From an uncultured Candidatus Saccharibacteria bacterium (GTDB taxonomy: Bacteria; Patescibacteriota; Minisyncoccia; Phycocordibacterales; JAKAEA01): 64,000 nt of DNA. Positions 14,591 to 52,991 of this stretch are shown here, in pieces. Numbering within the stretch: the first letter of the stretch is position 1; each line of letters starts with the position of its first letter. The DNA lies in the NCBI GenBank assembly GCA_964577595.1, contig CAZNZK010000001.1:66271-130270 (forward strand), written 5' to 3'. Below the pieces are notes generated by a model that was not told the origin of the DNA, did not search any database, and saw nothing but the letters and a program-made list of their open reading frames with translations. A program made the position numbers and the translations under genes.

Positions 14591-14615
14591 AAATTGTGAG
14601 GTTTCGTCACTAGGG

Positions 14616-14936: not shown

Positions 14937-15093
14937 ATAATTGGTTCGGTGTAGAAGCCTTTGCACGACTTCGCGTTTAGACCAGGGGCTTCCTAGTCTA
15001 TTGATGCCTCACATACGACTACGTCCACCGAACCGGAACTATCATAGCAGAAAAGTTTGGCCGAGAAAAGGGTTGTCTGGTATACTTCGGAAT

Positions 15094-18925: not shown

Positions 18926-19109
18926 GGCTTAAATATAGGGGTCAGGGCCTAGTTTTGCAAACCAAACAAAAACTCCGCCGGAAGTATTAAAACTGTGGCG
19001 GAGCTTTGCTTAGCCTTGCGGGGATAACCACCCACTAACCATTGACACGTAGAAGTATAGCAGATTCTCTTTTACAGGCAACTATACGAAATAAAAAGTA
19101 TATTGCCTA

Positions 19110-19178
19110 AATTTTCTTGTAGGGGCGGCGGGAGTTGCACCCGCACGGCTAACGTGTCAATGGTTAGTTGAGACTCTC
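19110..19178 (-). ncRNA. tRNA-like structured RNA, family copy A (acceptor AGGGGCG/CGCCCCT, mini D hairpin, 9-nt loop CAUUGACAC, T-arm GCGGG-UGCAACU-CCCGC)
   Basis: 69-nt cloverleaf-like fold on minus strand. Near-identical to 52761..52831 with compensatory stem changes. Preceded by a conserved promoter-like motif and a leader hairpin. A hairpin plus U-tract terminator lies ~150 nt downstream at ~18957..18995. Confidence 0.45.
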
Positions 19179-19330
19179 TCGCGCCCCTATTACCGAGCAA
19201 TCTTACGAAATTGCCGGTACTTGTATTGTAGGCAGGGGTCGTTAAATTAGTCCTGAAGGAATAGTAAAGAAAAATTAAAATTCAACACTGCTCATTAGAA
19301 AAAACAAGATGTCAAATTTTCTGGTGCCGG

Positions 19331-20869
19331 TTAAAAATCGCGAAGGATGGAGATTTTGGCGCCGAGGGAATTGAGGCGAGCAACAATGTCTTCATAACCG
19401 CGGTTGATGGAATAGATATTACGCAAAACGGAAGTGCCACTGGCCGCGAGCATACCTATTAATAGAATGGCAGCGGGGCGCAAGGCGGGCGGACAAATTA
19501 CTTCCGCGGCCTTCAATGGGGTGATGCCGGTAACATACAAACGGTGCGGATCAACCAAAACGGCTTCAGCGCCGAGCTTTTCAATGTCTTTAGTGTAGAT
19601 AGCCCGCTTTTCATAGGGCCAGTCGTGAATGAGGGTGGTGCCTTTGGCTTGGGTGGCAATGATCGCGAAAAAAGGCAAGTTGTCCATATTTAAGCCGGGG
19701 TAGGGGCGGCATTCAATTTTTTCTTCTAAGGCGGTGAGGCGTGAAGGCAGGGTTTTTAAATCAACGAGTGCCGTGCGTTCGTTGTGCGCGATGTAGCGTT
19801 TCAGGATTTTATAACGGAAGCCCATTTTTTCCAGTTTCAAAAGTTCCAGTTCTAAAAATTCAATTGGCACGCGGCGCAAGGTGATGCTTGAGCGGGTTAC
19901 CACGGCGGCAGTTAAAAAGAACATAGCATCAATAGGGTCTTCAGCTAAGCGGTAGGTTACGGGTGCGTCTATTTTTGTCACGCCGTGCACAACGAGCGTA
20001 GTGGTGCCGATGCCGTCAATTTTCACACCGCATTTTTCCAAAAAGAAACACACTTCCTGCACCATATAATTGGCGGAAGCGTATTTTATGACCGTACGGC
20101 CAGGAATGAGGGCGGCGGCCATAATAGCACTCTCGCTGGCAGTGTCGCTGGATTCATAAAGAATGATTTCTGCTGGCTTAAGCTTGGCGGCCTGAACCTC
20201 GTAGTATTTCTCCTTCGTGGTGATGTTGACGCCAAGTTTTTCCAAAGCATAAAGATGTGGCTTCACGGTGCGTGAACCAAGCCGGCAACCGCCGGGCTGA
20301 GGCAGGCGAAACTTCGGCAGGGCGTGCAAGAGGGGGGCAATAAGCATGACAATGCTTCGGGTTTTTTCCGCCGATTCAGCATTCAGATTCTTCAGATCAA
20401 ATTTTTCCGGTGGTTTAATTTCCAAATCGTTCCCGCTGGCACCTGTCCATTTCACCCCGACGCCGATGGATTGAAAAACTTCAATCATGCGGTTCACTTC
20501 CTCAATTTTCGGCACGCTCTGCAAAACGGTTTTGTTGCGATTTAAAAGAGCGGCGCAGAGCAAACCCATGGCGCCGTTTTTACTCGTTTTAATGGTGATA
20601 TCTCCGGAAAGCGGGCGACCGCCTTCAATCCGAAAATTCAAGGCACCTTTGGAAAGCTGGAGGATGTCGCGGTCCAAGGCGCCACTTAATTTGGCCAGCA
20701 TTTCCGTGGACAAGTTTTGCTCTCCGCGCTCAATGCGAGCAATGGCGCTCTGGCTGGTTTCTAGGCGAAGGGCCAATTCGTCTTGCGTTAAGCCACGGGC
20801 TTGGCGCAAGCGGCTGATAAAGGTGCCTATATCGCTCAAGTGCTTGGCTGTTCGTGGGGCGGCTGGCAT
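19331..20869 (-). CDS. murA: UDP-N-acetylglucosamine 1-carboxyvinyltransferase (MurA) with N-terminal XRE-type HTH domain fusion
   Basis: MurA/EPSP-synthase fold throughout (FRIEGGRPLSGDITIKTSKNGAMGLLCAALL; active-site region QPGGCRLGSRTVKPH). First ~65 aa ISRLRQARGLTQDELALRLETSQSAIARIERGEQNLSTEMLAKLSGAL form a Cro/C1-type HTH. Start inferred at MPAAPRT; the upstream part of the 672-aa track ORF reads through an AT-rich promoter. Confidence 0.65.
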   Translation of the reverse strand: MPAAPRTAKHLSDIGTFISRLRQARGLTQDELALRLETSQSAIARIERGEQNLSTEMLAKLSGALDRDILQLSKGALNFRIEGGRPLSGDITIKTSKNGAMGLLCAALLNRNKTVLQSVPKIEEVNRMIEVFQSIGVGVKWTGASGNDLEIKPPEKFDLKNLNAESAEKTRSIVMLIAPLLHALPKFRLPQPGGCRLGSRTVKPHLYALEKLGVNITTKEKYYEVQAAKLKPAEIILYESSDTASESAIMAAALIPGRTVIKYASANYMVQEVCFFLEKCGVKIDGIGTTTLVVHGVTKIDAPVTYRLAEDPIDAMFFLTAAVVTRSSITLRRVPIEFLELELLKLEKMGFRYKILKRYIAHNERTALVDLKTLPSRLTALEEKIECRPYPGLNMDNLPFFAIIATQAKGTTLIHDWPYEKRAIYTKDIEKLGAEAVLVDPHRLYVTGITPLKAAEVICPPALRPAAILLIGMLAASGTSVLRNIYSINRGYEDIVARLNSLGAKISILRDF

Positions 20870-20996
20870 ATTAAAATAATATATCACATATGGTATATAT
20901 TTAAAAATTGAAAAATGGTGATAACTTTTGTAGGCTTGCGATATTTCTGCAAGGTGATAGCGTAGTGGTTGGATACTTTGTTTTTGGAGGTGCCCT

Positions 20997-21275
20997 ATGG
21001 CTAAAGTACCAACGTCCGATGAGGTTTTTGCGGGTGTAGAGGAAGTTCTCCGTGACACCTTTGTCGCTCCCGGCGCGATCATTAACCGTGATACGCTCCT
21101 CAAGGAAGATCTTAAGGCTGATTCGCTTGATAGCGCGGAGGTCGTCCTCAGCCTGGAGGAGAAGTTCGGGATTGAAATTCCCGACTCTGCGCTGGAGCCG
21201 GTTCCGACAACGGTTGGCGATCTCTGTGCTGTGGTTATGCGTCTCGTCCAGGCCCGGGAGCCAAGCGTTTCGTAA
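20997..21275 (+). CDS. acpP: acyl carrier protein
   Basis: Phosphopantetheine attachment motif LKADSLDSAEVVLSLEEKFGIEIPD. GGAGGTG RBS upstream. Confidence 0.7.
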   Translation: MAKVPTSDEVFAGVEEVLRDTFVAPGAIINRDTLLKEDLKADSLDSAEVVLSLEEKFGIEIPDSALEPVPTTVGDLCAVVMRLVQAREPSVS

Positions 21276-21375
21276 GGAGTTTTTGCAAAATGTCGCAGTA
21301 CTACTCGCCGCCCTATCGTGGGCGGCTTTTCATTTGCCAGAATCTGCATAAAATGGTACTATTCTAGTAGCGTTT

Positions 21376-21747: not shown

Positions 21748-21879
21748 GAATCAATTAATGCAGGCACGAGCCGGCTTCTTCTCACGGAGAGCCGGCTTTT
21801 TTCTGCATATCTTTTTTGGGAAATTTTTATTTTATTTCATTTGTAAAATCTTCAAAAATCACGTAGTATGCCTATATAT

Positions 21880-33069: not shown

Positions 33070-33130
33070 GGCAAAAGGGCTTTGACGAAGGCTTTCCCTC
33101 TCGTCCGGCCTGAGAAAAAGTCCTTTTGCC
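33070..33130 (+). repeat. nested-hairpin intergenic repeat, family 1 copy 1 (GGCAAAAGG...AGGC-TTTCCCTCTCGTCCG-GCCT-GAGAAAAAGT-CCTTTTGCC)
   Basis: 61-nt element immediately after the mrdA stop. Conserved core shared with 33713..33773. Outer and inner stems differ between copies but remain paired. Confidence 0.5.
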
Positions 33131-33712: not shown

Positions 33713-33773
33713 GGCAGAAAGGGTTTTCCGAAAGCTTTCCCTCTCGTCCGGCTTGAGAAAAACCTTTTCTGCC
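33713..33773 (+). repeat. nested-hairpin intergenic repeat, family 1 copy 2
   Basis: GGCAGAAAGG-gttttccgaa-AAGC-TTTCCCTCTCGTCCG-GCTT-GAGAAAAA-CCTTTTCTGCC immediately after the greA stop. Compensatory changes relative to copy 1 in both stems. Confidence 0.5.
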
Positions 33774-37821: not shown

Positions 37822-39543
37822 ATGAGCACTCGTAGCCGCATTCGTCTCATTTCCATTTTGCTCATAGCTTTTGCTCTGGTGCTCGTTGGCCGCCTTTATT
37901 TTATTCAGATAGTTCAGGGTGGGGATTTTTCTGCGCGTGCCGACGAGCAATATACTCGGCCGAGTAGTGGCCTCTACAACCGCGGTACTATTTACTTTCA
38001 GGATAAAACAAGCACGCTCATTCCTGCCGCTTCACTAGCCACGGGTTATACGGTTGCGATTAATCCTAATCAAATAAGCGCCAGTGGTACGCCAGCGCTG
38101 ATCTACCAAAAACTTAATGGTATTTTGCCGCTGGATAAACCGACATTTTTGGCCGATGCTGCCAAAAGCACCGATACATATGAAGAAATTGCTCAACATG
38201 TTCCGAAATCGCAAGCTGACGCCATTACCGCCCTCAAACTTTCCGCTATTGGTATTTATCAAGATCGTTGGCGAGTCTACCCAGAAGATACTCTAGCTTC
38301 GCAGGTCGTTGGTTTTGTTGGTTACGATAGCACTACCACTGACGGTCGCTATGGTTTGGAAAAATATTACAATAGCACGCTAGAACGCGATGGCGATGAT
38401 GTATACGTAAATATTTTTGCTCAAATTTTTTCTAATATAAAAGAAGTCACTGGAGGTCAGCAAGAGGGGGACATTGTTACCACTATTGATCCGAACGTTC
38501 AGCAATATTTAGAGCAACAATTGCAGGCTGTGCAAGCAAAATACAGCTCAACAGTCACTGGTGGTATTGTTATTGATCCACAGACTGGCAATATTATTGC
38601 CATGGGCGCCACCCCCGATTTTGACCCGAATAATTACGGTAATGTCAGCGATATTGGTGTTTTCACAAACCCGTTGGTGCAAAACGTGTATGAAATGGGT
38701 TCGGTTATAAAGTCGCTGACTATGGCAGCCGGCTTGGATGCGGGGGTAGTGACACCGACCACGACCTATAACGACACCGGCTCGCTCACTTTGGACGGGC
38801 ACACTATTTGGAATTATGATTTACGTGGTCGGGGGCCACAAACCACTATGCAAACGGTTTTGAATGACTCGCTCAACACGGGTGCGGCCACAGTTGCCCT
38901 CAAGCTCGGCAATAGCCTATTCTCAAATTATATGTACCGTTTTGGCCTTGGTTCCAGCACGGGTATTGATTTACCTAATGAGGCACACAACTTACTGAGT
39001 ACTCTACAAAGCTCGCGTGACATTGATCATGCCACCGCCGCGTATGGCCAGGGTATTGCCATGTCGCCGATTTCTACGGTCCGCGCGCTTTGTGCTTTGG
39101 CTAATGGTGGCACGCTTATTACGCCGCACGTGGTCAATCAGATTAATTATACCGATGGTACGAGTCGCACGCTTTCGTATGGTCCAGGTCCGCGGGCTAT
39201 TTCCACCAGCACAGCGCTGGCTATTTCCGGCATGCTTACCACGGTGTATCAGCAGGCCTTAGTTGCCGACAAGGTTGGCGCGGTTAAATTTAATAACTAT
39301 TCCGTTGCTTCTAAAACCGGCACGGCTCAAATTCCGGCGCCTGGCGGCGGCTATCTGCCCAATCAATATTTGAACTCTTTCTTCGGTTATTTCCCCTCAG
39401 CTCAGTCGCAGGCACGTTTCCTGATTTTCTTGTATACTTATAAGCCGCAGAATGTTGACTTTGCTTCGCAGAGCTTAACGCCATCATTTGTTAATTTGGT
39501 CAAATATCTGATAAATTATTACGAAGTGCCTCCAGATCGCTAG
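37822..39543 (+). CDS. ftsI: peptidoglycan D,D-transpeptidase FtsI (PBP3-like)
   Basis: SxxK (GSVIKS), SxN (NDSLNTG), KTG (KTGTAQ). N-terminal TM. dcw position. Confidence 0.75.
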   Translation: MSTRSRIRLISILLIAFALVLVGRLYFIQIVQGGDFSARADEQYTRPSSGLYNRGTIYFQDKTSTLIPAASLATGYTVAINPNQISASGTPALIYQKLNGILPLDKPTFLADAAKSTDTYEEIAQHVPKSQADAITALKLSAIGIYQDRWRVYPEDTLASQVVGFVGYDSTTTDGRYGLEKYYNSTLERDGDDVYVNIFAQIFSNIKEVTGGQQEGDIVTTIDPNVQQYLEQQLQAVQAKYSSTVTGGIVIDPQTGNIIAMGATPDFDPNNYGNVSDIGVFTNPLVQNVYEMGSVIKSLTMAAGLDAGVVTPTTTYNDTGSLTLDGHTIWNYDLRGRGPQTTMQTVLNDSLNTGAATVALKLGNSLFSNYMYRFGLGSSTGIDLPNEAHNLLSTLQSSRDIDHATAAYGQGIAMSPISTVRALCALANGGTLITPHVVNQINYTDGTSRTLSYGPGPRAISTSTALAISGMLTTVYQQALVADKVGAVKFNNYSVASKTGTAQIPAPGGGYLPNQYLNSFFGYFPSAQSQARFLIFLYTYKPQNVDFASQSLTPSFVNLVKYLINYYEVPPDR

Positions 39544-39546
39544 AAG

Positions 39547-39605
39547 GTGAAAGAACTTTTCGCAGGGGCTTGCATCGTTTATCTCCCCGAGAAAAGTTCT
39601 TTCAC
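39547..39605 (+). repeat. nested-hairpin intergenic repeat, family 2 copy 1
   Basis: GTGAAAGAACTTTTC-GCA-GGGG-CTTGCATCGTTTATCT-CCCC-GA-GAAAAGTTCTTTCAC between ftsI and murF. Reverse-complement homolog of 49570..49628 with compensatory outer-stem changes. Confidence 0.5.
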
Positions 39606-39616
39606 CGTATAACACT

Positions 39617-40969
39617 ATGAAAGAAACATTTAAATTTATAGTTGAGAAAATAATCGTTTGGGAAGCGAAATTAGTCCTTAAAAAATATAAGCCTAGAATT
39701 ATTGCCATCACTGGTTCGGTGGGGAAGACTTCCACGAAGGATGCAATTTTCAGCACCCTGGTGGCTATTTTGCCGGGCGGGGCACAAGCAGTGCGTAAGA
39801 GCGATAAAAGCTTCAATAGCGACATTGGCGTGGCTCTCACCGTGCTGGGCTTGCCTAACGGTTGGTATAACCCTTTTCGTTGGCTGGCTAATTTCGTTGA
39901 GGGTTGTATGCAGGCATTTTTCACTCTCCACTATCCAAAGTTGTTGGTGCTGGAAATTGGGGCCGACAGGCCGGGCGACATTGCCCGCGTTACCGAATGG
40001 GTTAAGCCCGACATCGTCGTGCTCACCAAACTCGCTGATGTGCCGGTGCATGTTGAGTTCTTTCCATCGGTGGAGGCACTTGTCAGTGAAAAAGGTCAGC
40101 TGGTGGCGGCCCTTAAGCCTACTGGCACGCTCATACTCAATGCCGACGATGAGCGCGTCACGGCTTTGGCTAATGGAGTGGCCTGCAAAAAAATTACCTA
40201 TGGTTTCGGGGCTACTGCGGCGGTGCGCGTTGGTTATGATGAAATCGCCTACGCGCCTTCCGAGCGTTCCGACGTGGCGATGCCGGCCGGCCTACGTTTT
40301 CGGCTTGAATATGGCGGTACGAGCATACCGGTTATGATTGCTGGTGTGTTAGGCCGTCAGCATATCTACCCATTAGCCGCCGCTTTCGCTGTAGCCACGG
40401 CTTTGGGCGAAACTAATCACCTGTTGGTGGCCGAAGCTTTAGCAAAATACGAGCCAACGCCGGGCCGGATGCGTCTGGTGACTGGTATGCACGAAACCGT
40501 TATTTTAGATGATAGTTACAACGCTTCGCCGGTGGCGGTGGCGGCAGGGCTTGAAGTGCTTGAAAGCTTGAAAGTGCCCGGCCGAAAAATCGCTGTTTTG
40601 GGCGATATGATGGAACTCGGTGACTATTCCGTAGTTGAACATCGAAAAGTCGGGGAACGGGTGGCTAAAATCAGTAAAAAGTCCAGTAAGAAATTTCCGA
40701 CGTTTTTTGTTGGCGTCGGTGTACGCATGCGTGGAGCTGCCGACGCCGCTTTAGATGCTGGTATGGACGACAATACTGTTTTGCAATTTGATACGAGCCG
40801 CGAAGCCGGCCGCTACCTCGCCGACCAGCTCCAGCAGGGAGATGCTATTTTCGTGAAAGGTTCCCAAAGCCTGCGCATGGAGCGCGTTACTGAAGAATTG
40901 ATGGAGCATCGCGAAATCGCCGAAAAATTGCTCGCCCGCCAGGAGGGTGTGTGGAAAAGAAAGAAATAA
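39617..40969 (+). CDS. murF: Mur ligase family protein, MurF-like; lacks the usual N-terminal domain
   Basis: P-loop IIAITGSVGKTSTKDAI at residue ~30. C-terminal GDMMELGDYSVVEHRKVG motif typical of MurF. dcw context. Confidence 0.55.
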   Translation: MKETFKFIVEKIIVWEAKLVLKKYKPRIIAITGSVGKTSTKDAIFSTLVAILPGGAQAVRKSDKSFNSDIGVALTVLGLPNGWYNPFRWLANFVEGCMQAFFTLHYPKLLVLEIGADRPGDIARVTEWVKPDIVVLTKLADVPVHVEFFPSVEALVSEKGQLVAALKPTGTLILNADDERVTALANGVACKKITYGFGATAAVRVGYDEIAYAPSERSDVAMPAGLRFRLEYGGTSIPVMIAGVLGRQHIYPLAAAFAVATALGETNHLLVAEALAKYEPTPGRMRLVTGMHETVILDDSYNASPVAVAAGLEVLESLKVPGRKIAVLGDMMELGDYSVVEHRKVGERVAKISKKSSKKFPTFFVGVGVRMRGAADAALDAGMDDNTVLQFDTSREAGRYLADQLQQGDAIFVKGSQSLRMERVTEELMEHREIAEKLLARQEGVWKRKK

Positions 40970-41005
40970 ATTGTAAAAGGGATAAAGACACGTTATTATT
41001 CAGGT

Positions 41006-42010
41006 ATGAAAAACGGCTCACAAAAAATTCTCCTTTCCGGTGTGAAGCCTACGGGCCGGCCGCATATTGGAAATTACTTTGGAGCCATGAAGCAGTTTGT
41101 GGATATGCAGAATGAACATGCTACTTTTGTGATGATTGCCGACTACCACGCGCTTATTAGTGTACATAATAAGGAGGAATTAGCGGGCGACATTCTTGGC
41201 GTGGCTTTGGACTATTTAGCTATTGGCTTGGATCCGGCCAAGGTGACTATTTTTAAACAGTCGGATGTCTCGGCACACACCGAGCTTGCTTGGATTTTTA
41301 ATTGTTTAACAACCATTCCGTATTTGGAACGAGCTCATGCTTTTAAGGACGCGGAGGCTAAGGATAAGGAGGTGAATATGGGGCTTTTTGACTATCCGGT
41401 GCTTATGGCTGCTGATATTTTACTCTACGATGCCGATGTTGTGCCCGTAGGTGCTGATCAGGCTCAGCATTTGGAAATTAGTCGCGATTTGGCTCGTAAA
41501 TTCAATCTTACGTTTGGCGGTAAGGGTGAAAAGGGCGAGCCGATTTTCAAAGAGCCAAAAGGGTTAATTTTGAAAGACGTTGGTGTGGTGCCAGGCACCG
41601 ATGGCCGCAAAATGTCCAAGAGCTATGGCAATACTATTCCGCTTTTTGCCAGTGACGAAGAAATTAAAAAAGCGGTGATGAGTATTGTGACCGATTCTAA
41701 ATCACCAGCCGAGCCGAAGGATCCAGAGAAGGATAATATTTTTGCTTTATATAAGCTTTTTGCTACGCCGAGCGAATTAGCCGAATTGCGCGAGCGCTAT
41801 GTGAAGGGTGGCTTGGGCTACAAAGAGGCGAAAGAGTTGCTTATCGTGCGGATTTTAGCGTTCGTAGCGCCCTTGCGTGAGAAGCGCGCCAAGCTTGAAA
41901 AGAATATTGCTTCAGTTAAGGAAATCCTTTTGGCCGGAGGCGAAAAAGCTCGCGAGGTTGCCGATGCCAAAATGCGGAAGGTGCGTGACGTTATTGGGGT
42001 GAATCTATAA
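41006..42010 (+). CDS. trpS: tryptophanyl-tRNA synthetase
   Basis: HIGH (TGRPHIGN) and KMSKS motifs. 334 aa class I Trp/Tyr fold. Confidence 0.85.
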   Translation: MKNGSQKILLSGVKPTGRPHIGNYFGAMKQFVDMQNEHATFVMIADYHALISVHNKEELAGDILGVALDYLAIGLDPAKVTIFKQSDVSAHTELAWIFNCLTTIPYLERAHAFKDAEAKDKEVNMGLFDYPVLMAADILLYDADVVPVGADQAQHLEISRDLARKFNLTFGGKGEKGEPIFKEPKGLILKDVGVVPGTDGRKMSKSYGNTIPLFASDEEIKKAVMSIVTDSKSPAEPKDPEKDNIFALYKLFATPSELAELRERYVKGGLGYKEAKELLIVRILAFVAPLREKRAKLEKNIASVKEILLAGGEKAREVADAKMRKVRDVIGVNL

Positions 42011-42018
42011 AATGCAAA

Positions 42019-42339
42019 TTAGTTGGCGATGCAGGAGGTGGCAATAGCTGTGAGGCTGGTTGATGAACTCAATAGTGCGGAAAAGTCTATAGAGATTGGC
42101 TGGCCGTTGGAATAGGTGAATGCGGTTGGTTTTGTGATTGTGTTAATTGCGGCGCAGGAAATAGCGGCTGTGGTAGTGCGTGCCTGGCTAGTGGCATTTT
42201 CAAATTGCATTTCCAATGCCCGCAGGCGTTCCACTTGTATAAAAAGAGCGAGGCAAAGAATGGCACTAAAAAAGATGACGCCAATGAGGGCGACGAAGCC
42301 ATCGTGGCTGCTATGCGATTTTCGCTGATTATTGCGCAT
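42019..42339 (-). CDS. possible minor pilin-like protein
   Basis: After MRNNQRKSHSSHDGFVALIGVIFFSAILCLALF: a hydrophobic pilin-like N-terminus but lacking Glu5. Overlaps the next pilin gene by ~10 nt. Confidence 0.3.
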   Translation of the reverse strand: MRNNQRKSHSSHDGFVALIGVIFFSAILCLALFIQVERLRALEMQFENATSQARTTTAAISCAAINTITKPTAFTYSNGQPISIDFSALLSSSTSLTAIATSCIAN

Positions 42340-42703
42340 AATAGTAATCAAGTTGCCATGGTGGCGCAAGCGATATGGATAGATGGTTAATTGTTTGCAG
42401 TACACTAACAGCTCCGAGTAAAAGTGTGGATGAAGTGCTTTCGCTCACCACAATCGGCGCGGCAATAGTATGCCACGCTTGCGTGTTGATAGTGTTCACG
42501 GCGGCAGGGTAATTTGTGGCACCGCTGATTTCTGCGTCGACATTTTGGACGGCAAAAAGGAGCGCCTCCTGATTTTTTGCTAAACGCATGAATGTGGCAT
42601 TTTGCTTGGCGAGTGAAATCCACGTTTCCGTCACACCCACAAAAAGCAGGGAAAAAAGACCATAGTAGATAAGCATCTCAATAAAGGTGAATCCTCGGTG
42701 CAT
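42329..42703 (-). CDS. type IV pilin / pseudopilin
   Basis: MHRGFTFIEMLIYYGLFSLLFVGV: G|FTFIEM class III signal with Glu5. Confidence 0.55.
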   Translation of the reverse strand: MHRGFTFIEMLIYYGLFSLLFVGVTETWISLAKQNATFMRLAKNQEALLFAVQNVDAEISGATNYPAAVNTINTQAWHTIAAPIVVSESTSSTLLLGAVSVLQTINHLSISLAPPWQLDYYYAQ

Positions 42704-42715
42704 GAGCGGTTGGAA

Positions 42716-44083
42716 TTATTGGTGGCTAAAGGAAACAATGGCCGATGATGTGGCGGCGATGGTATAGAGCATGTTGTTTTCGCTATCAAGGCCGAGTGTC
42801 GCTTGCGACCATACTTTTAGTGGTGTTCCGAAGAACGGGCCAGGGCCGATAGCGTTGGTAGTAAGCGAAAAAATACCCACGCTTGTTGCCACGAGAACGT
42901 GGCCGGCGATGGCTCGCAAGCCGGTTATATTCGCGGCTAGAGAGCTTGTTGCGATGATAGATGGTGCCGACGAACTTGCCACGTTGATGGCGACTAATTC
43001 CGGGTGGCTGGCAGAGGCGCCCTTAAGGCGTCCGGCATAGAGTGTGGTGCCAAGCAAAAAGAGCCGCTCAGTGTCTTCCGTTCCGGTAAAGCTTAAGTCG
43101 GCGATTTTGCCGGGGTGCGCGGGGTCGGCGACGTTTATAACTATAATGTCGCTGGTATTGCCCGATGTTGCCAGGTAAGCATAGTTGCCGGCGACAACAA
43201 TGTCGTTAATGTTGTGATTAAGCTCAAGTGAGCCAAGCCAACGCGGGTTTCCGGGCGTGGTGACGTCAAAAATATGAAATTCGTTGCCGGCCGTGCGATG
43301 GGTGCCTACATAGGCGCGGCCGGCATAGTAGCGCACACTTAAGCCGGAGGGCGCGGAGCCCGTAACGCCGGGTAATGAACGTGTAGCGACAATTTTAGGT
43401 TGGCTGGGATTTTGAATATCAACGATTTGTAACTGGCTGGTGGTGCCAACGACAACTAGGTACACATAGCTACCTGCGGCGTCAAGCATATTGACTGGCG
43501 GCGTGATGAGGCGGGAAATTATTGTTTGCGCAATAGTGCTGCTCACCACAAAATTGTAGCCGTCAGTTGAAGACGCGGCGAGATAGGTATTTCCGGAGAA
43601 AAAATCAAAACTGGTAATGCCGGACTCAAACACATGAGGCGCAGAAAAAGCAAAAGGTGGAGCGAGGCCTTGAGGTAGCATATAGCCGCCGCAGTCATTA
43701 CCAGCCGCCGCCAACGCTAAGGGTGGCGAATATGAAGCGGTCATGATCAATGTTCGGCTCATGCCCGTGCCTATTGCTCCGCGTGCCATTGCTATCGCTT
43801 CATTCAAGCATGGTTCAATCGCCGTAATTGAAGATGAGGCAAAAATGCCCGAAACGGTTTCTTGCTCTGCAGAGTTGTAGGCGATAGTTTTTTCCAACAA
43901 TGCTTGATCTCGGAAAAGCATATTGCTGTAAAGCGCTAGTCGTTCCAGGGATTGAAAATAATTTTGAAGCGTGGGCAATGCGGCGGCAATAATCATGCTG
44001 AAAATAACGGTCGCGATAATCACTTCAATCACTACCGACCCTTGTGCGGTGCCGAAGCCGTTTTTAGTAGGCCAGTTCTCCAT
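42716..44083 (-). CDS. large pilin-like protein with C-terminal beta-propeller-type repeats (candidate pilus tip/adhesin)
   Basis: N-terminus ...GFGTAQG|SVVIEVIIATVIFSMIIAAALP (Glu5 present). C-terminal ~300 aa with repeated Y-x-Y-L/V-A-x-G / beta-strand blades. Confidence 0.5.
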   Translation of the reverse strand: MENWPTKNGFGTAQGSVVIEVIIATVIFSMIIAAALPTLQNYFQSLERLALYSNMLFRDQALLEKTIAYNSAEQETVSGIFASSSITAIEPCLNEAIAMARGAIGTGMSRTLIMTASYSPPLALAAAGNDCGGYMLPQGLAPPFAFSAPHVFESGITSFDFFSGNTYLAASSTDGYNFVVSSTIAQTIISRLITPPVNMLDAAGSYVYLVVVGTTSQLQIVDIQNPSQPKIVATRSLPGVTGSAPSGLSVRYYAGRAYVGTHRTAGNEFHIFDVTTPGNPRWLGSLELNHNINDIVVAGNYAYLATSGNTSDIIVINVADPAHPGKIADLSFTGTEDTERLFLLGTTLYAGRLKGASASHPELVAINVASSSAPSIIATSSLAANITGLRAIAGHVLVATSVGIFSLTTNAIGPGPFFGTPLKVWSQATLGLDSENNMLYTIAATSSAIVSFSHQ

Positions 44084-44357
44084 CTGTATACACAATAATT
44101 GGCTCGGCGAACGTGCCGAATGAAGGAGTAATTGTAACTGTGGTAGTGCTTTGGCTGGCGTGGCGGTTTTCTATGAGTGTGTCCAGTTTGTTTTCTCGCA
44201 AAGTGAGCGCCATCCACTGATTATATTGGCTGAAAGAAATACCGAAGCCTGCAGCAGCAAGCAGGGCAAATATACCTATGACCGCCATGATTTCAATAAG
44301 CGTAAAAGCATTTTGGCGATTGTTAATGAATAGCGCTGACCGATTGCGAGATGGCAT
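44064..44357 (-). CDS. type IV pilin-like protein
   Basis: NRQNAFTLIEIMAVIGIFALLAAAG prepilin-type N-terminus. 97 aa. Confidence 0.5.
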   Translation of the reverse strand: MPSRNRSALFINNRQNAFTLIEIMAVIGIFALLAAAGFGISFSQYNQWMALTLRENKLDTLIENRHASQSTTTVTITPSFGTFAEPIIVYTDGELAY

Positions 44358-45420
44358 AAATGGGCAATATCATAGCTAAGGAAATAAAACCGACAGAGAT
44401 GCCCATGCCAATCATAAGCGCCGGCTCCAAAAGACTCATCCATTTTTTAACCGCATCCTCATATTCATTCTGAAAATACTCGGAAAGAAATGAGAGGGTT
44501 TCAGCCAGGGAAGCGCTCGCTTCGGCTGCGGAAATGAGCTGGATCATGGTTTGCGGAAAAAGGCGTGGGTTACGAGCAAGCGCGGCAGAAAACTTACCAC
44601 CGCCTTCTATATCGCCTCTGACTTTTTCCAGTGATCGGGCATAGGTGATATTGCCAGGGCGGGCACGCCGCAGACTTATCGGCAAAGAAAGGCCAGCCAA
44701 GATAAGCGTTGCTGTGGTGCCCGTAAAGACGCTCAGAACGTGTGATTTTAGAGTATTTCCAACTAGTGGTAACCACAGAAGCATTTGTCCTCCGCGATTG
44801 GCAATAACTTCTCGTGTCAGGGTAAGTTTACTGCAGAATATACTGATGCCGATAAATCCAATGCTGCTACTGGAGACTATAAGCCAATGGTGGACAACAG
44901 TGTCGGATACGAAGATTACAACACGTGTCGGCAAGGGCAACGCGGTGTGCATACTTGTCAGAAGTGGCCTGATTTTCGGAAAAATGCCGAAAGTCATGCC
45001 GCCGGTAAGTGCTATAGACAGAAGGGCGATACAGCAAGGGTAGGTGAGGGCTCCGATAAGTTTTTTACGGCTTGCATCTTTTTTGACGAGTTCATTACCC
45101 GCCCGTTCAAGCGCTGTCCGTAAGTTCCCCGATTCTTCGCCTGCGCTAATAACTGCCACAATGCCCGAGGGTAGAGAATTGGTATGTTGTTCAAGAGAGT
45201 AGGCAAGTGGCAAGCCGGTAGCCATATCGGCCGTAATGGCTTCCAAAAACCGGCGCATGCGATTTTTGGGCGGTAACGAAGCATTGGCAAGGCGCAAGCA
45301 TTCATCCAATGATGCTCCTGATTTTAGGAAAAAGCCCAACTGTTTGAACAGAATTATTTGTTCGCGCAAGTTGATATTTATTTTCTTAGTAGTTAACATT
45401 ATGTATTGATTACAGCGCAC
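44323..45420 (-). CDS. pilC: type IV pilus assembly platform protein PilC (GspF family)
   Basis: Two T2SS-F domains, three TM segments, ~365 aa. Adjacent to the secretion ATPase. Confidence 0.7.
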   Translation of the reverse strand: MRCNQYIMLTTKKININLREQIILFKQLGFFLKSGASLDECLRLANASLPPKNRMRRFLEAITADMATGLPLAYSLEQHTNSLPSGIVAVISAGEESGNLRTALERAGNELVKKDASRKKLIGALTYPCCIALLSIALTGGMTFGIFPKIRPLLTSMHTALPLPTRVVIFVSDTVVHHWLIVSSSSIGFIGISIFCSKLTLTREVIANRGGQMLLWLPLVGNTLKSHVLSVFTGTTATLILAGLSLPISLRRARPGNITYARSLEKVRGDIEGGGKFSAALARNPRLFPQTMIQLISAAEASASLAETLSFLSEYFQNEYEDAVKKWMSLLEPALMIGMGISVGFISLAMILPIYAISQSVSAIH

Positions 45421-46507
45421 TAATTACTTCTCCGTCGTCAATAAGGCCGCGACGGGATTTTTCCATACCATCCATAGCCAGAGTGCGCATGTTTTCTTGG
45501 GCGGCAATCGTTTGCAATTGGGCTAAGGAGGCACCACGAATCACCGCCTCCCGCAAGGCAGTGCTCATGGTAGCGATTTCGTAGACTGCTAGCCGGCCGC
45601 GAAAGCCAGTATAACGGCAAGTCGCACACCCTTTTGATCCACGTTCTCGACAGCGTTCGCACCGCTTGCGCACCAGTCGTTGTGCCACAATAGTCTCCAG
45701 AGTAGCCGCGATTAGATAGGGTGCTACACCCATGTCTAAAAAACGGACAACCACAGATAAAGCGTCGTTGGTATGCAGGGTGGAAAGCACGAGGTGGCCG
45801 GTGAGCGAGGCGTGAATGGCAATATGGGCTGTTTCCGCGTCGCGGATTTCACCGACCATAATGACGTCCGGATCTTGTCGCAGAATGGAGCGCAAGCCGG
45901 CGGCAAAAGTTAAACCGTGAGCCGCGTCAACCTGCACCTGCCGAGCGCTTGGCAGAACATATTCCACAGGGTCTTCAATAGTAACCACCAAGCGTTCTGG
46001 TGATACTAACCGCAATAAGCTATAGAGCGTCGTGGTTTTTCCCGAACCCGTTGGTCCAGTGATCAGGACCATACCTTGTTTGCGTGCCATAGCGGCCTCT
46101 AGGCGGGCCACATCAATCACGTTCACTCCTAACGTTTCCAGCCGCGCGAAATCAGGCTTATCTTTAAGAATGCGCAGAACTGCCGCTTCGCCATAGTGCG
46201 TGGGCATGATAGAGGCGCGAATATCCCCGCCACCAAATTCGCGTGTCAGCCGCCCGTCTTGGGGCATGTTGTGCAAATCCGTCCGCAATCGCGCTAGGAT
46301 CTTTATACGGCTTATAAGCCCAGCATGGAGTGCCTTTGGTACCCGACGCTCCACCGCGAGCAGGCCGTCAGCCCGAAACCGAACCAACACTTCATTACTA
46401 CCTGGATCCACATGAATATCGGAAGCACCTGCCCGGTCGGCCTCATGCAAAATAATTTCAATAATTTTTGCGGGCGCCGCGGCCTCTTCAGAATCCTCGG
46501 TCTCCAT
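45410..46507 (-). CDS. pilB: type IV pilus assembly ATPase (PilB/GspE family, short form)
   Basis: Walker [18 protein letters not shown]; Asp box and Walker B; His box. C-terminal tetracysteine [19 protein letters not shown] characteristic of GspE/PilB rather than PilT. Confidence 0.7.
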
Positions 46508-46564
46508 TACTGCAATTATAAAAGCAGTCGCTAAAATCTTTCTGAACTTTTATTAAATTAAAAA

Positions 46565-47017
46565 TTAAAACAACGATTCCACCACACTTTTTATTTCAGC
46601 GCCATCGGCTTGGCCTTTTAATTCCTTGTTTATAGCCCCGATTAATTTGCCCATTCCAGCCTTGTCAGTGACACCGAGTTGTTGTTTAACTTTTTTTGCC
46701 ACTTTTTCAATCTCTTTTCGGGGTAGGGAAGCTGGTAAAAACTCTTGCAAAATCTTCAATTCTGCCTGTTCCACTTTCACTAAATCCTTTCGGCCGCCTT
46801 TGGTAAACTGCTCAATAGAATCCTTATGCTGATTAGCCAGCTTTTTCACTATGGCAAGAACGACGTCGTCTTTGGCATCTTCTCCCTCCTTGGCCTTTTT
46901 AGCCATGAGTTCATAGGTTAATGCGGCCAAAATAGAGCGGCAAACCGTGGTGCGCACAGTGTCTTGGTCTAAAAATGCCCGCTTCGCTTCCTCTTTGATT
47001 TTTGTATGCAGAGACAT
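46565..47017 (-). CDS. GatB/YqeY domain protein
   Basis: 150-aa all-helical, Lys-rich; pattern typical of YqeY. Confidence 0.6.
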   Translation of the reverse strand: MSLHTKIKEEAKRAFLDQDTVRTTVCRSILAALTYELMAKKAKEGEDAKDDVVLAIVKKLANQHKDSIEQFTKGGRKDLVKVEQAELKILQEFLPASLPRKEIEKVAKKVKQQLGVTDKAGMGKLIGAINKELKGQADGAEIKSVVESLF

Positions 47018-47087
47018 GAGAATGTTTGTAATTACTTAATATTTCCATACTATATCACTAATTTTCTAGTATAATAGTGGCATACTT

Positions 47088-48191
47088 ATGGATGGCACAT
47101 TCTTTATTTTAATACTCGTCATTATTGTGGCCGCGGGAGCGGTAGTTTATGCTGTCCGGAAAAGTGGTGCGGGGTTAGAAAAGTCCGAAAATAATGAGCA
47201 AGCCAGCACATTTCAGTTGCTCATAGAGCAAATTAATGATTTGGGTCGGCGGGTTGATTTCAAAGTCGGGGAGCTCCACAAAACGGTAGACACCAAAATG
47301 GGGGAGTCGTCCAAAATGATTCAAAAGTCGGTATCCGACCAGCTTTTAACATCACAAAAACTTATCCAAGACATTACCCGCGAACTCACCGAAGTTAAGG
47401 AAACCGGTAAGCAGGTAGTGGGTTTTGCCGACCAGCTCCAAAGTCTGCAGGATATTCTTAAAAATCCAAAGCAACGTGGTATTCTCGGTGAGTATTATTT
47501 GGAAACTCTTCTCAAAAATACTCTACCGCCAGAAAGCTACCAAATGCAATATGCTTTTTCCGATGGCACTATTGTTGACGCCGCCGTTTTCGTTAAAGAC
47601 AAAATCATCCCTATCGATTCAAAATTTTCCCTGGAAAATTACAATCGCCTGAGCGAAACCCGCGACCCAGCCGAGCGCGACCGCCTGGAAAAAATCTTCG
47701 TCAACGACCTCAAAAATCGTATTCTGGAAACCAGTAAATACATTTTGCCCAAAGAGGGGACTATGGACTTTGCCTTCATGTTTATTCCCCACGAGGCCAT
47801 TTATTACGAGCTTTTGGTGAGCACTATTGGCGCCCTCAAAGATGAGCCGGAAAACCTCATCCAGCGGGCCGCCAGTAAGTACCACGTCATTATTGTGTCG
47901 CCGACCTCCTTCCTGGCCTACCTCCAAACCGTCCTGCAGGGCCTACGCGCATTACAAATAGAGGAGTCGGTGAAAGGGGTCATTAAGAATGTGGGTGAGC
48001 TTAGCAGGCATCTTAAAACCTATGAGGAATACCATGGCAAGCTCGGCAATGCTTTAGCTACCACTATCAATCACTACAACGCCACCGGTAAAGAATTCAA
48101 GAAAATTGATAAAGATATTTTGCGCATCACCGGTACATCGCTTGAAATTGAAACGCTGACTTTAGACAAGCCCGATACCGACGAAATGTAA
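47088..48191 (+). CDS. rmuC: DNA recombination protein RmuC
   Basis: N-terminal TM, long coiled coil, C-terminal RmuC nuclease-like region YILPKEGTMDFAFMFIPHEAIYYELL. Confidence 0.65.
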   Translation: MDGTFFILILVIIVAAGAVVYAVRKSGAGLEKSENNEQASTFQLLIEQINDLGRRVDFKVGELHKTVDTKMGESSKMIQKSVSDQLLTSQKLIQDITRELTEVKETGKQVVGFADQLQSLQDILKNPKQRGILGEYYLETLLKNTLPPESYQMQYAFSDGTIVDAAVFVKDKIIPIDSKFSLENYNRLSETRDPAERDRLEKIFVNDLKNRILETSKYILPKEGTMDFAFMFIPHEAIYYELLVSTIGALKDEPENLIQRAASKYHVIIVSPTSFLAYLQTVLQGLRALQIEESVKGVIKNVGELSRHLKTYEEYHGKLGNALATTINHYNATGKEFKKIDKDILRITGTSLEIETLTLDKPDTDEM

Positions 48192-48586
48192 TAAAAAGGC
48201 AGATTGTGGATATCCTCTTGCACGATTTTATCAGTAGGAGTACTATCATTTCAGACACAAAATTCTTTTTTGGTTCCATTGGGAGCCAGGGTTTTGTCAT
48301 TTCTCTTGTTAATGTCGCGCAAGGATGTGCGACACGCCGGCCTGAAAGGAGCTGGCAAAAAAACGAGGAAATTTCATACGTTTCAATCGAAATGCTTGAT
48401 TCTATCGTGCTTAAAGCGCTTGTTTAGGGCCCTGGACTCACGTCGCGACTGAGTCGGACGGCCTACAGCAGAAAACACGTAAGGATCAAAATGGCTGAAC
48501 TGCGACTCACAACCGCGGTTCAGCTATTTTTTATTGGCAATGTGCACTATTGCCTTTTTATTAATATCTGTTAAAATAGCGAAACT

Positions 48587-48922
48587 ATGACGAAAACAGG
48601 CCAATTTGCGGTTATTGAAACAGGCGGCAAGCAATACAAAGTTGCCGTTGGTGATTCTATTAAAATTGAAAAGCTTAACGATGAGGCCAAGGTGGGGGAC
48701 TCTCTGGCTTTTGATAAAGTCCTGTTAGTTGCTGACGAAAATACGGCTAAGGTTGGCTCTCCAAACCTTGCTGGTGCTTCTGTTAAGGCCACCCTTACTA
48801 AAATCGGCCGCGCCGCAAAAATCCTCGTGGTTAAATTCAAACAAAAGAGCCGCTATATGAAGCGCAATGGTCATCGCCAGCCTTTCTTTGAGGTAAAAAT
48901 TGATTCTATTTCTGCCAAGTAA
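48587..48922 (+). CDS. rplU: 50S ribosomal protein L21
   Basis: MTKTGQFAVIETGGKQYKVAVGDSIKIEKL ... HRQPFFEVKI. Confidence 0.85.
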   Translation: MTKTGQFAVIETGGKQYKVAVGDSIKIEKLNDEAKVGDSLAFDKVLLVADENTAKVGSPNLAGASVKATLTKIGRAAKILVVKFKQKSRYMKRNGHRQPFFEVKIDSISAK

Positions 48923-48941
48923 ATATAAGAAAAACCGCTTA

Positions 48942-49553
48942 CTACGAGCGGTTTTTTAGTGCGAATTTAAGGGTGTCGCTATCAGAATATTCTAATTCGG
49001 TGCCAGTGGAGACGCCTTTGCCTAAATGGGAGATTTTTGCGGTGCCCATGACGGGTGCTAAAAGTCGTTCTATGTAGTCGCCGGTGTGTTCGCCCTCGGG
49101 GGTGACATTCATAGCCAAGATAATTTCCCGCAAGTCCGCTTGACGGTTTTTAACCGTAGCGAGCAGTTCTGTTTGGCGAATCCGTTCCTCTGGCTTTTCC
49201 GTGAGAATGGGTACACTACCGCCGAGCACAAAATAAAGACCCTTATAGGCGCCGCTCTTTTCGATACTTTCAAGGTCAATATCGCGACTCACTATCATGA
49301 GTTGGCTTTTATCACGATGCTCGTCGCGGTCAATATCGCAGAGTTTTTGGTGATTGCCGGCTGGTTTTTCAAAAAAACGGTGGCATGCCGTACATTCCGC
49401 CACGGTGCCCTTCAGGGTGCTGACAAGCTTCGTTAATTCCTCATTGTGGTGTTGCGAGCGGGTAAGAAGGTAATAAGTGAATCGTCTTGCCTGCCTCGGT
49501 CCAATGCCTGGAAATTTTCCAAACAGTTCTGTTAATCGTTCTATGGTAGTCAT
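48942..49553 (-). CDS. recR: recombination protein RecR
   Basis: HhH LFGKFPGIGPRQARRFTYYLL, C4 zinc finger CTACHRFFEKPAGNHQKLCDIC, Toprim domain. Confidence 0.85.
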   Translation of the reverse strand: MTTIERLTELFGKFPGIGPRQARRFTYYLLTRSQHHNEELTKLVSTLKGTVAECTACHRFFEKPAGNHQKLCDIDRDEHRDKSQLMIVSRDIDLESIEKSGAYKGLYFVLGGSVPILTEKPEERIRQTELLATVKNRQADLREIILAMNVTPEGEHTGDYIERLLAPVMGTAKISHLGKGVSTGTELEYSDSDTLKFALKNRS

Positions 49554-49569
49554 TAAAATTTATTATAAC

Positions 49570-49628
49570 GCAAAAGAGCTTTTCTCGGGGAGATAAACGA
49601 TGCAAGCCCCTTCGAAAAGCTCTTTTGC
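49570..49628 (+). repeat. nested-hairpin intergenic repeat, family 2 copy 2 (inverted orientation relative to 39547..39605)
   Basis: GCAAAAGAGCTTTTC-tcGGGGagataaacgatgcaagCCCCtt-CGAAAAGCTCTTTTGC between recR and dnaB. 16-bp perfect outer stem. Confidence 0.5.
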
Positions 49629-49651
49629 TTTCAAATACACTAAAAACCACC

Positions 49652-51043
49652 TTAAAAATCATCACCTCCAGCTGGAGCGGCAAAATTATTATCCAGGGTA
49701 ACGAAACTCGTCTTTTTCTCGTCAAAGTAGAGCTCTGCCTTGCCGGTGGGGCCGTTGCGGTGTTTTTCAATCAGAATTTCGGCGATATTTGGCCGGCCCG
49801 AATCTTTATTTTGTTTATCTTCACGGTGAATGAACATAACCACATCGGCGTCTTGTTCAATGGATCCGGAATCGCGCAAGTCGGAGAGGCGGGGGCGGCC
49901 ACCGCGTTGTTCAACGGCGCGGGAAAGCTGGGAAAGGGCCAAAACGGGCACATCTAGTTCGCGGGCTAATTGTTTGAGTGAGCGGGAAATTTCGGTGATT
50001 TGTTGTACTAAATTGTCATTGGCCCGAGAATTGGTTGGTTGCATGAGCTGGAGATAGTCCACCACCACCAAGCCAAGACCCTTTTCTGATTTTAGGCGCC
50101 GCGCAGTAGAGCGCATCTTCAAAATAGTGTTAGCAGGCGCGTCGTCAATAAATATAGGCGCTTTAGAGAGGCGACTCATGCCTTCCTGGAGAGCGGTGAA
50201 GTCGTGCTCAACAAAACCGTGACCCGTGCGCAATTTCCAGGAATCAACACGCGACTCGGCGGCGAGCATGCGGTCAACGAGCTGTTGAGCGCTCATTTCC
50301 AAAGAAAATACTCCAACAGGGATATTGTGGGTGATAGCGGCATGGCGAATAATGTCCAAGGCGAGCGACGTTTTACCAACAGATGGGCGAGCGGCCAAAA
50401 TTATAAGATCCGATTTCTGTAGACCGGCCAGCTTGCTGTCCAAATCCTTAAAGCCGGTAGGGACGCCGCGAAGTTCGTCACGTGATTGGTGGAGCTTGTC
50501 AAAACGCTCCCAAGCACCAGCGAGTTCGTCGCCGAGCATGACGAAGCGGTGAGCAGTAGGGGCGTTGGTGACCTCAAAAACACGTTTTTCCGCGGAATCC
50601 AGCAATACTTCCAGCTCGTTGCCTTCATCGTAGCCCAGACGGTTAATATCCTCGCCACACTCAATGAGGTTACGCATCACAAACTTCTTTTCCACGATTT
50701 CCGCATAGTGCTTAATGTTGGCAGCCGATGGCACTGAGTTGACGAGCTCGCTCAAATAGCTGGCGCCACCAACGCGGTCAAGCTCGCCTTTTTCGCGCAA
50801 GCGGTTGGAAAGGGAGAGGAGGTCGATTGGTGTGGAAACATTTAAAAGATCCAGCATCGTTTGGTAGATAATGCGGTGGCGCTCGGCATAAAAAGAATCA
50901 GATTTAATTTGGTCCACCACTTCATGGATGACATCAGGACGGAGCATGACAGAACCCAAGAGGGCCATTTCAGCTTCCACGCTTTGCGGCGGCACCCGCA
51001 CGTACGGAGATTTTTGTTGAATGAGTTTAGATTCTGTTGACAT
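49652..51043 (-). CDS. dnaB: replicative DNA helicase DnaB
   Basis: N-terminal DnaB domain (ALLGSVML). RecA-like domain with Walker A ARPSVGKTSLALDI, Walker B VVVDYLQLM, arginine finger. 463 aa, no intein. Confidence 0.85.
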   Translation of the reverse strand: MSTESKLIQQKSPYVRVPPQSVEAEMALLGSVMLRPDVIHEVVDQIKSDSFYAERHRIIYQTMLDLLNVSTPIDLLSLSNRLREKGELDRVGGASYLSELVNSVPSAANIKHYAEIVEKKFVMRNLIECGEDINRLGYDEGNELEVLLDSAEKRVFEVTNAPTAHRFVMLGDELAGAWERFDKLHQSRDELRGVPTGFKDLDSKLAGLQKSDLIILAARPSVGKTSLALDIIRHAAITHNIPVGVFSLEMSAQQLVDRMLAAESRVDSWKLRTGHGFVEHDFTALQEGMSRLSKAPIFIDDAPANTILKMRSTARRLKSEKGLGLVVVDYLQLMQPTNSRANDNLVQQITEISRSLKQLARELDVPVLALSQLSRAVEQRGGRPRLSDLRDSGSIEQDADVVMFIHREDKQNKDSGRPNIAEILIEKHRNGPTGKAELYFDEKKTSFVTLDNNFAAPAGGDDF

Positions 51044-52551: not shown

Positions 52552-52760
52552 GAAAAGAGTTATATATTAAATTGTCTGTTATCACTCGGGTACAAGCGAT
52601 CAATTTTGCGTGTATAGATTTTACGCAGTTCTCTTGACGCACTCAATTTTCTAATGAGCAGTACGCGATTTCATAAAAGATTTAAGTCTCTTTCAGGACT
52701 ATTTTAACAACCCCTGACTAAAATACTAATACCGGCAATTCTGCGGAATTGCTCGGCAAT

Positions 52761-52831
52761 AGGGGCGTGAGAGTAGTCTCAACTAATTCTTGACGTATTA
52801 GTCTTGCGGGGTGCAACTCCCGCCGCCCCTA
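52761..52831 (+). ncRNA. tRNA-like structured RNA, family copy C (loop UCUUGACGU; anticodon-like stem CTAAT/ATTAG compensatory to copy A CTAAC/GTTAG)
   Basis: Shares about 85% identity with copy A from 52694 (CAGGACTATTTTAACAACCCCTGACTAAAATAC promoter-like motif) through the tRNA-like domain, downstream conserved blocks and the terminator at ~52958..52990. Confidence 0.45.
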
Positions 52832-52991
52832 CCACAAAAATAGTCAACAACACAAATTTTTTATTGCGTATAGTTGCTTGTATGTGGGGATCTGTTATAC
52901 TCCCTTAACATGTCAAGAGTTAGTTAGGGATTATATCTCTAAGACTAAGCCAAAGACTCCGCTAGGTGTAATAACTAGGCGGGGTTTTTGT

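Follow-up and report, generated by a model that had tools for sequence, protein, structure and literature searches.

Nested palindromic repeats with a constant apex and a variable stem in short intergenic spacers of a Patescibacteria genome

Described palindromic repeats and the F2 hairpins

In well-studied bacteria, dispersed palindromic repeats, among them repetitive extragenic palindromic (REP) sequences, miniature inverted-repeat transposable elements (MITEs) and Correia repeat enclosed elements (CREE), shape both the expression of operons and the plasticity of the genome. Here we describe nested hairpins of a family that we call F2 in a 64-kb stretch of contig CAZNZK010000001.1 (the window), whose best named protein relatives are Parcubacteria/Paceibacteria-type Patescibacteria. 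Two copies, F2a and F2b, lie in the window, a third, F2c, is present in the related sequence L006, and a sister family, F1, contributes two hairpins of its own to the window (F1a and F1b). We propose, with moderate confidence, that F2 and F1 are low-copy, non-autonomous palindromic repeats of the insertion type that would serve as intercistronic terminators or as 3'-end hairpins in RNA. Our searches of the literature on hairpin repeats, MITEs and terminators of the candidate phyla radiation (CPR) yielded nothing comparable for Patescibacteria.

REPs are extragenic imperfect palindromes that sit between genes, often in operons just past stop codons, and in both orientations. Their hairpins act as stabilizers of mRNA 3' ends or as attenuators, and they are thought to be mobilized as single-stranded hairpins by a structure-recognizing HUH enzyme, the REP-associated tyrosine transposase (RAYT). 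The F elements resemble REPs and bacterial interspersed mosaic elements (BIMEs) in being strictly extragenic short palindromes, present in both orientations just past stop codons. They differ, however, in being nested and 59–61 nucleotides (nt) long, where REPs measure 20–40 nt, in lacking at their foot the conserved 5' GTAG of REPs, and in having a conserved apex on a variable stem. Only two F2 and two F1 copies were seen in 64 kb, compared with tens to hundreds of REPs per genome, and no RAYT gene was found in that stretch.

Small intergenic repeats with presence/absence differences between relatives are also a mark of MITEs and similar elements, such as the CREE of Neisseria and the pneumococcal RUP (repeat unit of pneumococcus) and BOX elements, and F2 shares this behavior. 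When co-transcribed, MITEs form long hairpins that can be RNase III substrates, terminators or promoter carriers. Classical MITEs, however, measure 100–500 base pairs (bp), keep their terminal inverted repeats conserved and duplicate a defined target (TA for CREE), whereas F2 has variable termini around a conserved center and shows no clear duplication. Bidirectional intrinsic terminators are similar in another respect, since the F elements consist of an A-tract, a stem and a T-tract placed past a stop codon and before the next promoter. Here the difference lies in the apical part, which comprises about 29 nt (internal loop, 4-bp stem and 16-nt loop) instead of a loop of 4–9 nt and is conserved in sequence across sites and species, and in the U-tracts, which are short; stem stability is high, at −28 to −31 kcal/mol, and the U-runs measure 3–5 nt.

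Mobile DNA that homes to palindromes or terminators is known from IS1397 and ISKpn1, found in REP loops, and from class C group II introns, found after terminators. Such a precedent would account for stems that vary around a constant insert, but these elements are kilobase-sized, autonomous and enzyme-encoding, whereas the candidate insert considered here is 39 nt long and non-coding. The RNase III hairpins of phage T7 offer a further likeness, as a stem, internal loop and stem recurring in intergenic positions between co-directional genes. The T7 sites, in contrast, are fixed in orientation within one transcript and share no sequence similarity with the F elements, for which RNase III cleavage is hypothetical.

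Constraint on the stem and the apex

F2a and F2b are reverse-complement homologs, as the original prediction had claimed, with a common 39-nt center, TTTTCG[C/A]AGGGGCTTGCATCGTTTATCTCCCCGAGAAAA, in which a single base differs. Both fold into an outer stem of 15–16 bp, a 3/2-nt internal loop, a GGGG/CCCC inner stem of 4 bp and a loop of 16 nt. The 24-nt inner structure, described there as identical in the two elements, occurs exactly twice in the window, once per strand, with no occurrence expected in a shuffled window (100 shuffles, three mismatches allowed). RNA folding energies are −31 kcal/mol for F2a and −29.8 kcal/mol for F2b (z = −5.6 and −4.4), none of 200 shuffles was as stable, and folding as DNA gives z-scores of −6.3 and −4.9.

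Three outer-stem pairs are changed on both sides between F2a and F2b (U-A to C-G, G-C to A-U and A-U to G-C); the only other difference is the C or A in the internal loop. Across all three F2 copies, the only variable positions are those of the ten basal base pairs in the stem and one internal-loop base, with a two-sided change in five of the 15 outer pairs, a one-sided change in none and 98% of cells paired. Pairing and covariation values of this size were reached by only 2–3 of 500 shuffles, and slid controls were 43–75% paired. Among the copies, identity is 55–70% in the basal 10 bp of either arm, compared with 97–100% in the center. Pairing is under selection in both helices, and the basal stem sequence is free to vary. 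The compensatory outer stems that had been noted earlier thus stand as far as the two-sided changes go, but they may partly reflect different host hairpins and not co-evolution in place.

The third copy adds a measure of divergence. The core of F2c is identical to that of F2a at all 39 positions, while its basal stem matches at 11 of 20 and forms still another compensating stem. L006 and a second sequence that is syntenic with the window, L028, both come from assembly GCA_021785065.1, whose proteins are 66–88% identical to those of the window in amino acid sequence (DnaB 87.5%, RecR 73%, MurF 72% and TrpS 66%); third codon positions are only 38–45% identical and hence saturated. The apical sequence is either selected or re-copied; a neutral loop could not have stayed identical between genomes so diverged. 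A recent transfer of the whole element is unlikely, because the stems would then also be identical.

Families 1 and 2 have equal length and layout but weak sequence similarity (nhmmer E about 0.4), and a covariance model of F2 scores family 1 at 26–28 bits in the same orientation and 20–21 bits when reversed. Within family 1, a single compensatory change, of G-C to A-T, separates the inner stems of F1a and F1b (GGC/GCC versus AGC/GCT). Common to the class are an A-rich 5' arm, a CGAA-type 5' internal loop, a short GC inner stem, a pyrimidine-rich loop of 13–19 nt and GAGA past the inner stem. These data support a single architectural class, in agreement with the parallel drawn originally from the arms, inner stem, loop and GAGAAAA.

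Several known identities were considered and set aside. A kink-turn, tandem-GA or loop-E internal loop was rejected by inspection, the order being outer stem, G, A, a single bulged A and inner stem, and in F2a and F2c a C replaces the second A, whereas a kink-turn has a C-stem, a 3-nt bulge and then G.A and A.G pairs on the bulged strand. DNA uptake sequences, DnaA boxes, dif, attC, retrons and CRISPR/TIGR were dismissed on size or architecture. At gathering thresholds, an Rfam scan of the window returned only a group I intron, away from the elements, and permissive scans of both F2 loci returned only miRNA-type generic hairpins, at 13–28 bits against thresholds of 54–111 bits.

Sites of the hairpins in the window and its relatives

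The neighbors identified by Pfam, an FtsI-type penicillin-binding protein followed by a MurF-type ligase at F2a and DnaB followed by RecR at F2b, confirm that both elements occupy spacers between co-directional genes (Table 1), although the elements are not conserved in these spacers. The positional bias that the prediction had looked for was borne out, in that all seven class members are intergenic; copies begin 2–23 nt past a stop codon and land in very short intergenic spacers. Its expectation that orientation always follows transcription did not hold. All four window copies read in the same direction as the genes beside them, as do five of the seven class members, but F2c is reversed relative to the transcription of ftsZ and trxB, and so is a family-1-like element in L010 relative to its neighbors. 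A search of the intergenic gaps for nested hairpins in which 13 or more outer-stem pairs enclose about 30 nt returned exactly the four F elements of the window and one each in L006 and L010.

Table 1. Coordinates of the hairpins, their parts and the genes next to F2a and F2b (window positions unless stated otherwise)
Feature	Coordinates	Strand	Remarks
F2a, whole element	39546–39606	+	GGTGAAAGAACTTTTC-GCA-GGGG-CTTGCATCGTTTATCT-CCCC-GA-GAAAAGTTCTTTCACC
F2a, outer stem, 5' arm (GGTGAAAGAACTTTTC)	39546–39561	+	Basal 10–11 nt variable among copies, TTTTC constant
F2a, apical module	39562–39590	+	GCA internal loop, GGGG, 16-nt loop CTTGCATCGTTTATCT, CCCC, GA internal loop
F2a, outer stem, 3' arm (GAAAAGTTCTTTCACC)	39591–39606	+	
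F2b, whole element	49570–49628	−	GCAAAAGAGCTTTTC-GAA-GGGG-CTTGCATCGTTTATCT-CCCC-GA-GAAAAGCTCTTTTGC
F2b, parts	Arms 49614–49628, 49570–49584; inner stems 49607–49610, 49587–49590; loop 49591–49606	−	
F2c	L006, 6290–6350	Core on +	Metagenome-assembled genome DBS1-3.bin146; between ftsZ and trxB (both −)
F1a, nested hairpin	33070–33130	+	2 nt past stop of a gene for a PBP2-type penicillin-binding protein; then TTGACT-16-TAAACT promoter-like site for greA
F1b, nested hairpin	33713–33773	+	Between greA and lysS
FtsI-type penicillin-binding transpeptidase, upstream of F2a	37822–39543	+	Stop codon 2 nt before hairpin
MurF-type Mur ligase, downstream of F2a	39617–40969	+	Start 10 nt past hairpin; without Shine-Dalgarno motif
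DnaB helicase, upstream of F2b in the sense of transcription	49652–51043	−	
RecR, downstream of F2b	48942–49553	−	TATAAT 8 nt before ATG, directly past hairpin

Orthologous spacers in relatives are empty at both F2 sites. In L028, which lacks both insertions, the dnaB–recR junction reads TAAATG and the ftsI–murF spacer consists of 23 nt free of any hairpin. The dnaB–recR junction is TAG-A-ATG in L025, the closest relative available (93.6% identical at the DnaB C-terminus), and TAAATG in L030, and the ftsI–murF spacers of L023 and L024 measure 25 nt, again without a hairpin. Across these five sequences the two sites thus hold 0–25 nt. L010, which is syntenic (76% identical in TrpRS), carries in its ftsI–murF spacer the reversed, family-1-like nested hairpin mentioned above, which reads GACAGC-ATTCCCCCTCCTCCCTCCA-GCTGAGAGAGG in reverse complement; at both of its F1 sites no element was found. 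This spacer appears to have been hit independently, since the core in L010 is a different, F1-like one and stands in the reverse direction. Past rpmA, plain hairpins stand in the window and in L030, and at the orthologous spot L028 has a nested hairpin of a third kind, its loop longer by about 25 nt. The same-species contigs (L001–L004 and L019–L022) share 99.8% or more of their sequence with the window and are hence uninformative; metagenome contigs of 250–272 kb also match it at this level.

An exact scan of the GTDB species genomes with a 20-mer (GGCTTGCATCGTTTATCTCC) gave one true homolog, in L006, and one chance match. Scans with the same 20-mer gave three chance matches only in JGI metagenomes, all in contexts of a ribosome-binding site and an ATG, and none in IMG/VR; viral scans with the F1 core and with F2 half-cores also gave no match. 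The genome and metagenome scans missed the window's own copies, even though L003 is from a JGI sample; the metagenome and viral collections evidently lack the lineage of the window, coverage of it is incomplete, and absence elsewhere is weak evidence. Searches of about 250 kb from relatives with nhmmer and covariance models found no further F1 or F2 copies.

Taken together, the F elements look like lineage-specific insertions and not like conserved regulatory parts of their spacers, because they lie at non-orthologous sites and in both orientations and because the orthologous spacers of relatives are empty. Their lineage is best read as a single one of Patescibacteria, Paceibacteria-like, and functionally they would be comparable to REP or MITE-like elements.

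The genes around the hairpins bear on how an insertion might affect expression. Boxes resembling a −10 element lie directly downstream of the hairpins, as before recR, and an inspection of 63 start codons in the window met hardly any Shine-Dalgarno-like motif upstream of them. TANNNT boxes stand 6–12 nt before many ATGs in the window, suggesting that the organism may use mainly leaderless or near-leaderless mRNAs. The ordinary terminators of the window consist of an A-tract, a short GC stem, a 4–9-nt loop and a T-tract (plain hairpins at 21770, 35276, 56591 and 59141), and the basal stems of F2 share this pattern of A-tract, stem and T-tract. A role as a promoter cassette, with GAGA in the −35 box, was rejected: F1b alone agrees with it (TTGAGA-18-AATTAT), F2 has a spacing of 15 nt to the −10 box, and F2c points into antisense ftsZ.

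Two observations concern the spacers themselves. The ftsI frame stays open for 22 codons past its TAG, crossing F2a until it reaches a TAA that precedes the murF ATG by 4 nt (39541–39612); an in-frame read-through extension of ftsI was considered and is probably coincidence, F2b being out of frame with dnaB. After the dnaB stop (49629–49660, minus strand) stands GGTGGTTTTTAG, which resembles a degenerate tandem copy of the dnaB 3' end, GGTGATGATTTTTAA, and ATTTTAA recurs just upstream of the recR ATG. The dnaB 3'-end repeat and ATTTTAA may be traces left when the 98-nt dnaB–recR spacer was opened.

Other features of the window lie apart from the hairpins. The group I intron found by Rfam (14661–14912 within 14590–14940, minus strand; 53 bits, E = 1e-10) interrupts a tRNA gene that ARAGORN missed in the genomic sequence and found after in silico removal of the intron, with an identity that depends on the exact splice sites. 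A non-coding region of about 360 nt occurs twice in opposite orientation (18966–19330, plus strand, and 52555–52955, minus strand; about 77% identical), each copy with a strongly folding element of about 70 nt (19120–19189 and 52761–52830; about −30 kcal/mol) and a TTGACA promoter-like box; this repeated region matched no Rfam family and is possibly a duplicated gene for a structured non-coding RNA. After greA, the window encodes a class II LysRS (PF00152, 33788–35275), where L010 (3131–4738) and L023 (4695–6296) have a class I LysRS (PF01921), an apparent non-orthologous replacement of the synthetase at a syntenic site. A 672-residue protein (19331–21349, minus strand) joins an N-terminal helix-turn-helix domain (HTH_3) to a domain of the 5-enolpyruvylshikimate-3-phosphate (EPSP) synthase fold, similar to MurA.

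Origin and possible role of the repeats

In conjunction with the folding and comparative data, we propose the following model for F2 and F1 as mobile palindromic repeats. Once transcribed, the hairpin would most likely act as an intercistronic terminator or as a stem-loop protecting the 3' end, uncoupling the two genes between which it lies, and the downstream gene could then restart from its own −10 box as a leaderless mRNA. The constant apical module may be the recognition determinant for a trans-acting factor, candidates for which would be a structure-specific spreading enzyme acting on the single-stranded hairpin or a binding protein. The moving unit could be either the whole hairpin or the 39-nt core alone, inserting into the loops of pre-existing terminators. 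Movement of the whole hairpin is favored by the empty sites of F2a and F2b, which carry no hairpin, and insertion of the core by the rpmA case and by the fact that only the basal stem varies.

Several observations weigh against this model. Copy number is low, with three class members in about 190 kb from relatives in addition to the two pairs in the window, and no transposase, RAYT, Y1_Tnp or reverse transcriptase was found among the proteins of the window, which covers about 64 kb, the genome being 0.5 Mb or larger. Filled and empty sites compared reveal no convincing target-site duplication, F2b having only a low-complexity pair, ATTTTTAA and ATTTTAA, and F2a nothing clear, and variable ends around a conserved center are the opposite of what classical MITEs show. 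As to the role as a terminator, the U-tracts are short (3–5 U), in or just past the 3' arm and partly inside the stem, and a consensus terminator scan that requires loops of 3–8 nt does not call the elements, whose loops exceed 8 nt.

What else could place a constant apex on varying stems? We think it rather unlikely that F2 is a cis-acting structured RNA motif whose loop and internal loop bind protein or RNA and control the neighboring genes through mRNA stability, through processing such as that by RNase III, or through translation, with copies duplicated and then selected site by site. A strongly conserved core next to compensatory stem evolution speaks for such a motif, as do the sense orientation of all four window copies and an internal-loop signature (5' CGAA/CGCA, 3' GAGA) that recurs in elements with different loops; a near-perfect duplex of at least 20 bp with an asymmetric internal loop also resembles the RNase III sites of phage T7. 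Yet two of the seven class members lie antisense to the genes on either side, the neighboring genes are heterogeneous, close relatives lack the element in orthologous spacers, and no Rfam family matched beyond generic hairpin noise. The reversed copies and the empty orthologous sites weaken in particular a regulatory RNA that is specific to the sense strand. Movement of the 39-nt core alone, bounded by its TTTTC...GAAAA ends and homing into the apical loops of existing terminators, so that the stems are those of different hosts, is doubtful to us as well. It would accommodate an invariant core with all variation in the basal 10 bp, the presence of both orientations, the resemblance of the basal stems to the plain terminators of the genome, and the rpmA terminator, plain in two genomes and nested in L028. 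It would nevertheless demand that a hairpin arise first at F2a and F2b, where relatives have 0–25-nt spacers without a terminator. Moreover, the basal stems stripped of their TTTTC/GAAAA pairs keep only 3–4 GC-type pairs and would be weak as terminators on their own, and the three F2 stems are 55–70% alike, more than unrelated hairpins need to be. A bolder reading, which we regard as quite unlikely, takes the core, together with the F1, L010 and L028 cores, for a new miniature structure-targeted mobile element of ultra-small CPR genomes that either homes into hairpins of the terminator type or builds them. It would be propagated by an enzyme reading the apical hairpin instead of terminal repeats, and its insertions would split translationally coupled pairs into separately transcribed leaderless genes.

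Ordinary intrinsic terminators that share ancestry through local duplication, with a center devoid of its own function, would suit the position just past stop codons, the A-tract and T-tract arms and the promoter-like −10 boxes after the hairpins. We nonetheless consider this improbable, given that a neutral loop is not expected to remain identical at 39 of 39 positions where third codon positions are about 40% identical and the adjacent stem 55%, and that the other terminators of the genome have loops of only 4–9 nt. Less likely still, and in our view very improbable, is a coding device on the reverse strand, akin to an upstream open reading frame (ORF). The complement of the F2 core reads GGGGAG-N7-ATG, a Shine-Dalgarno motif with a start codon, and in the two reversed elements an ORF from the loop would stop on the next start codon and so couple translation: in L010 (8458–8550), GGAGG...ATG opens a 16-codon ORF that ends in GTATGA, overlapping the murF ATG, and in L006 (6257–6340, minus strand) the loop ATG opens a 21-codon ORF that ends in TTGTGA, overlapping the trxB GTG. 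The ribosome-binding context of the chance 20-mer matches elsewhere points the same way. However, this reading is antisense to the genes in both window F2 copies, family 1 lacks an ATG in its reverse complement, Shine-Dalgarno sites play hardly any part in this genome, and the peptides (11, 33 and 21 residues) are not conserved beyond what the hairpin dictates; a small-peptide gene on the reverse strand was rejected for the same lack of conservation. With a probability of roughly 0.1 each, the two overlaps are not compelling, and the ORFs ending on the next start codon are probably coincidence.

What is the relevance of the F2 and F1 repeats, if they are indeed mobile? The genomes of Patescibacteria are tiny and streamlined, and F2 is a dispersed palindromic repeat with an inverted pattern, in which the apex is constant and the stem free to vary. 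Its core is identical between two species whose synonymous sites are saturated, and its insertions have separated genes that form fused pairs (TAAATG) in relatives. Were F2 only a variant of a terminator, it would be of local interest. If mobile, the repeat would point to an unrecognized mechanism of propagation that reads structure, and it would offer a natural marker of the remodeling of transcription units in leaderless, Shine-Dalgarno-free genomes.

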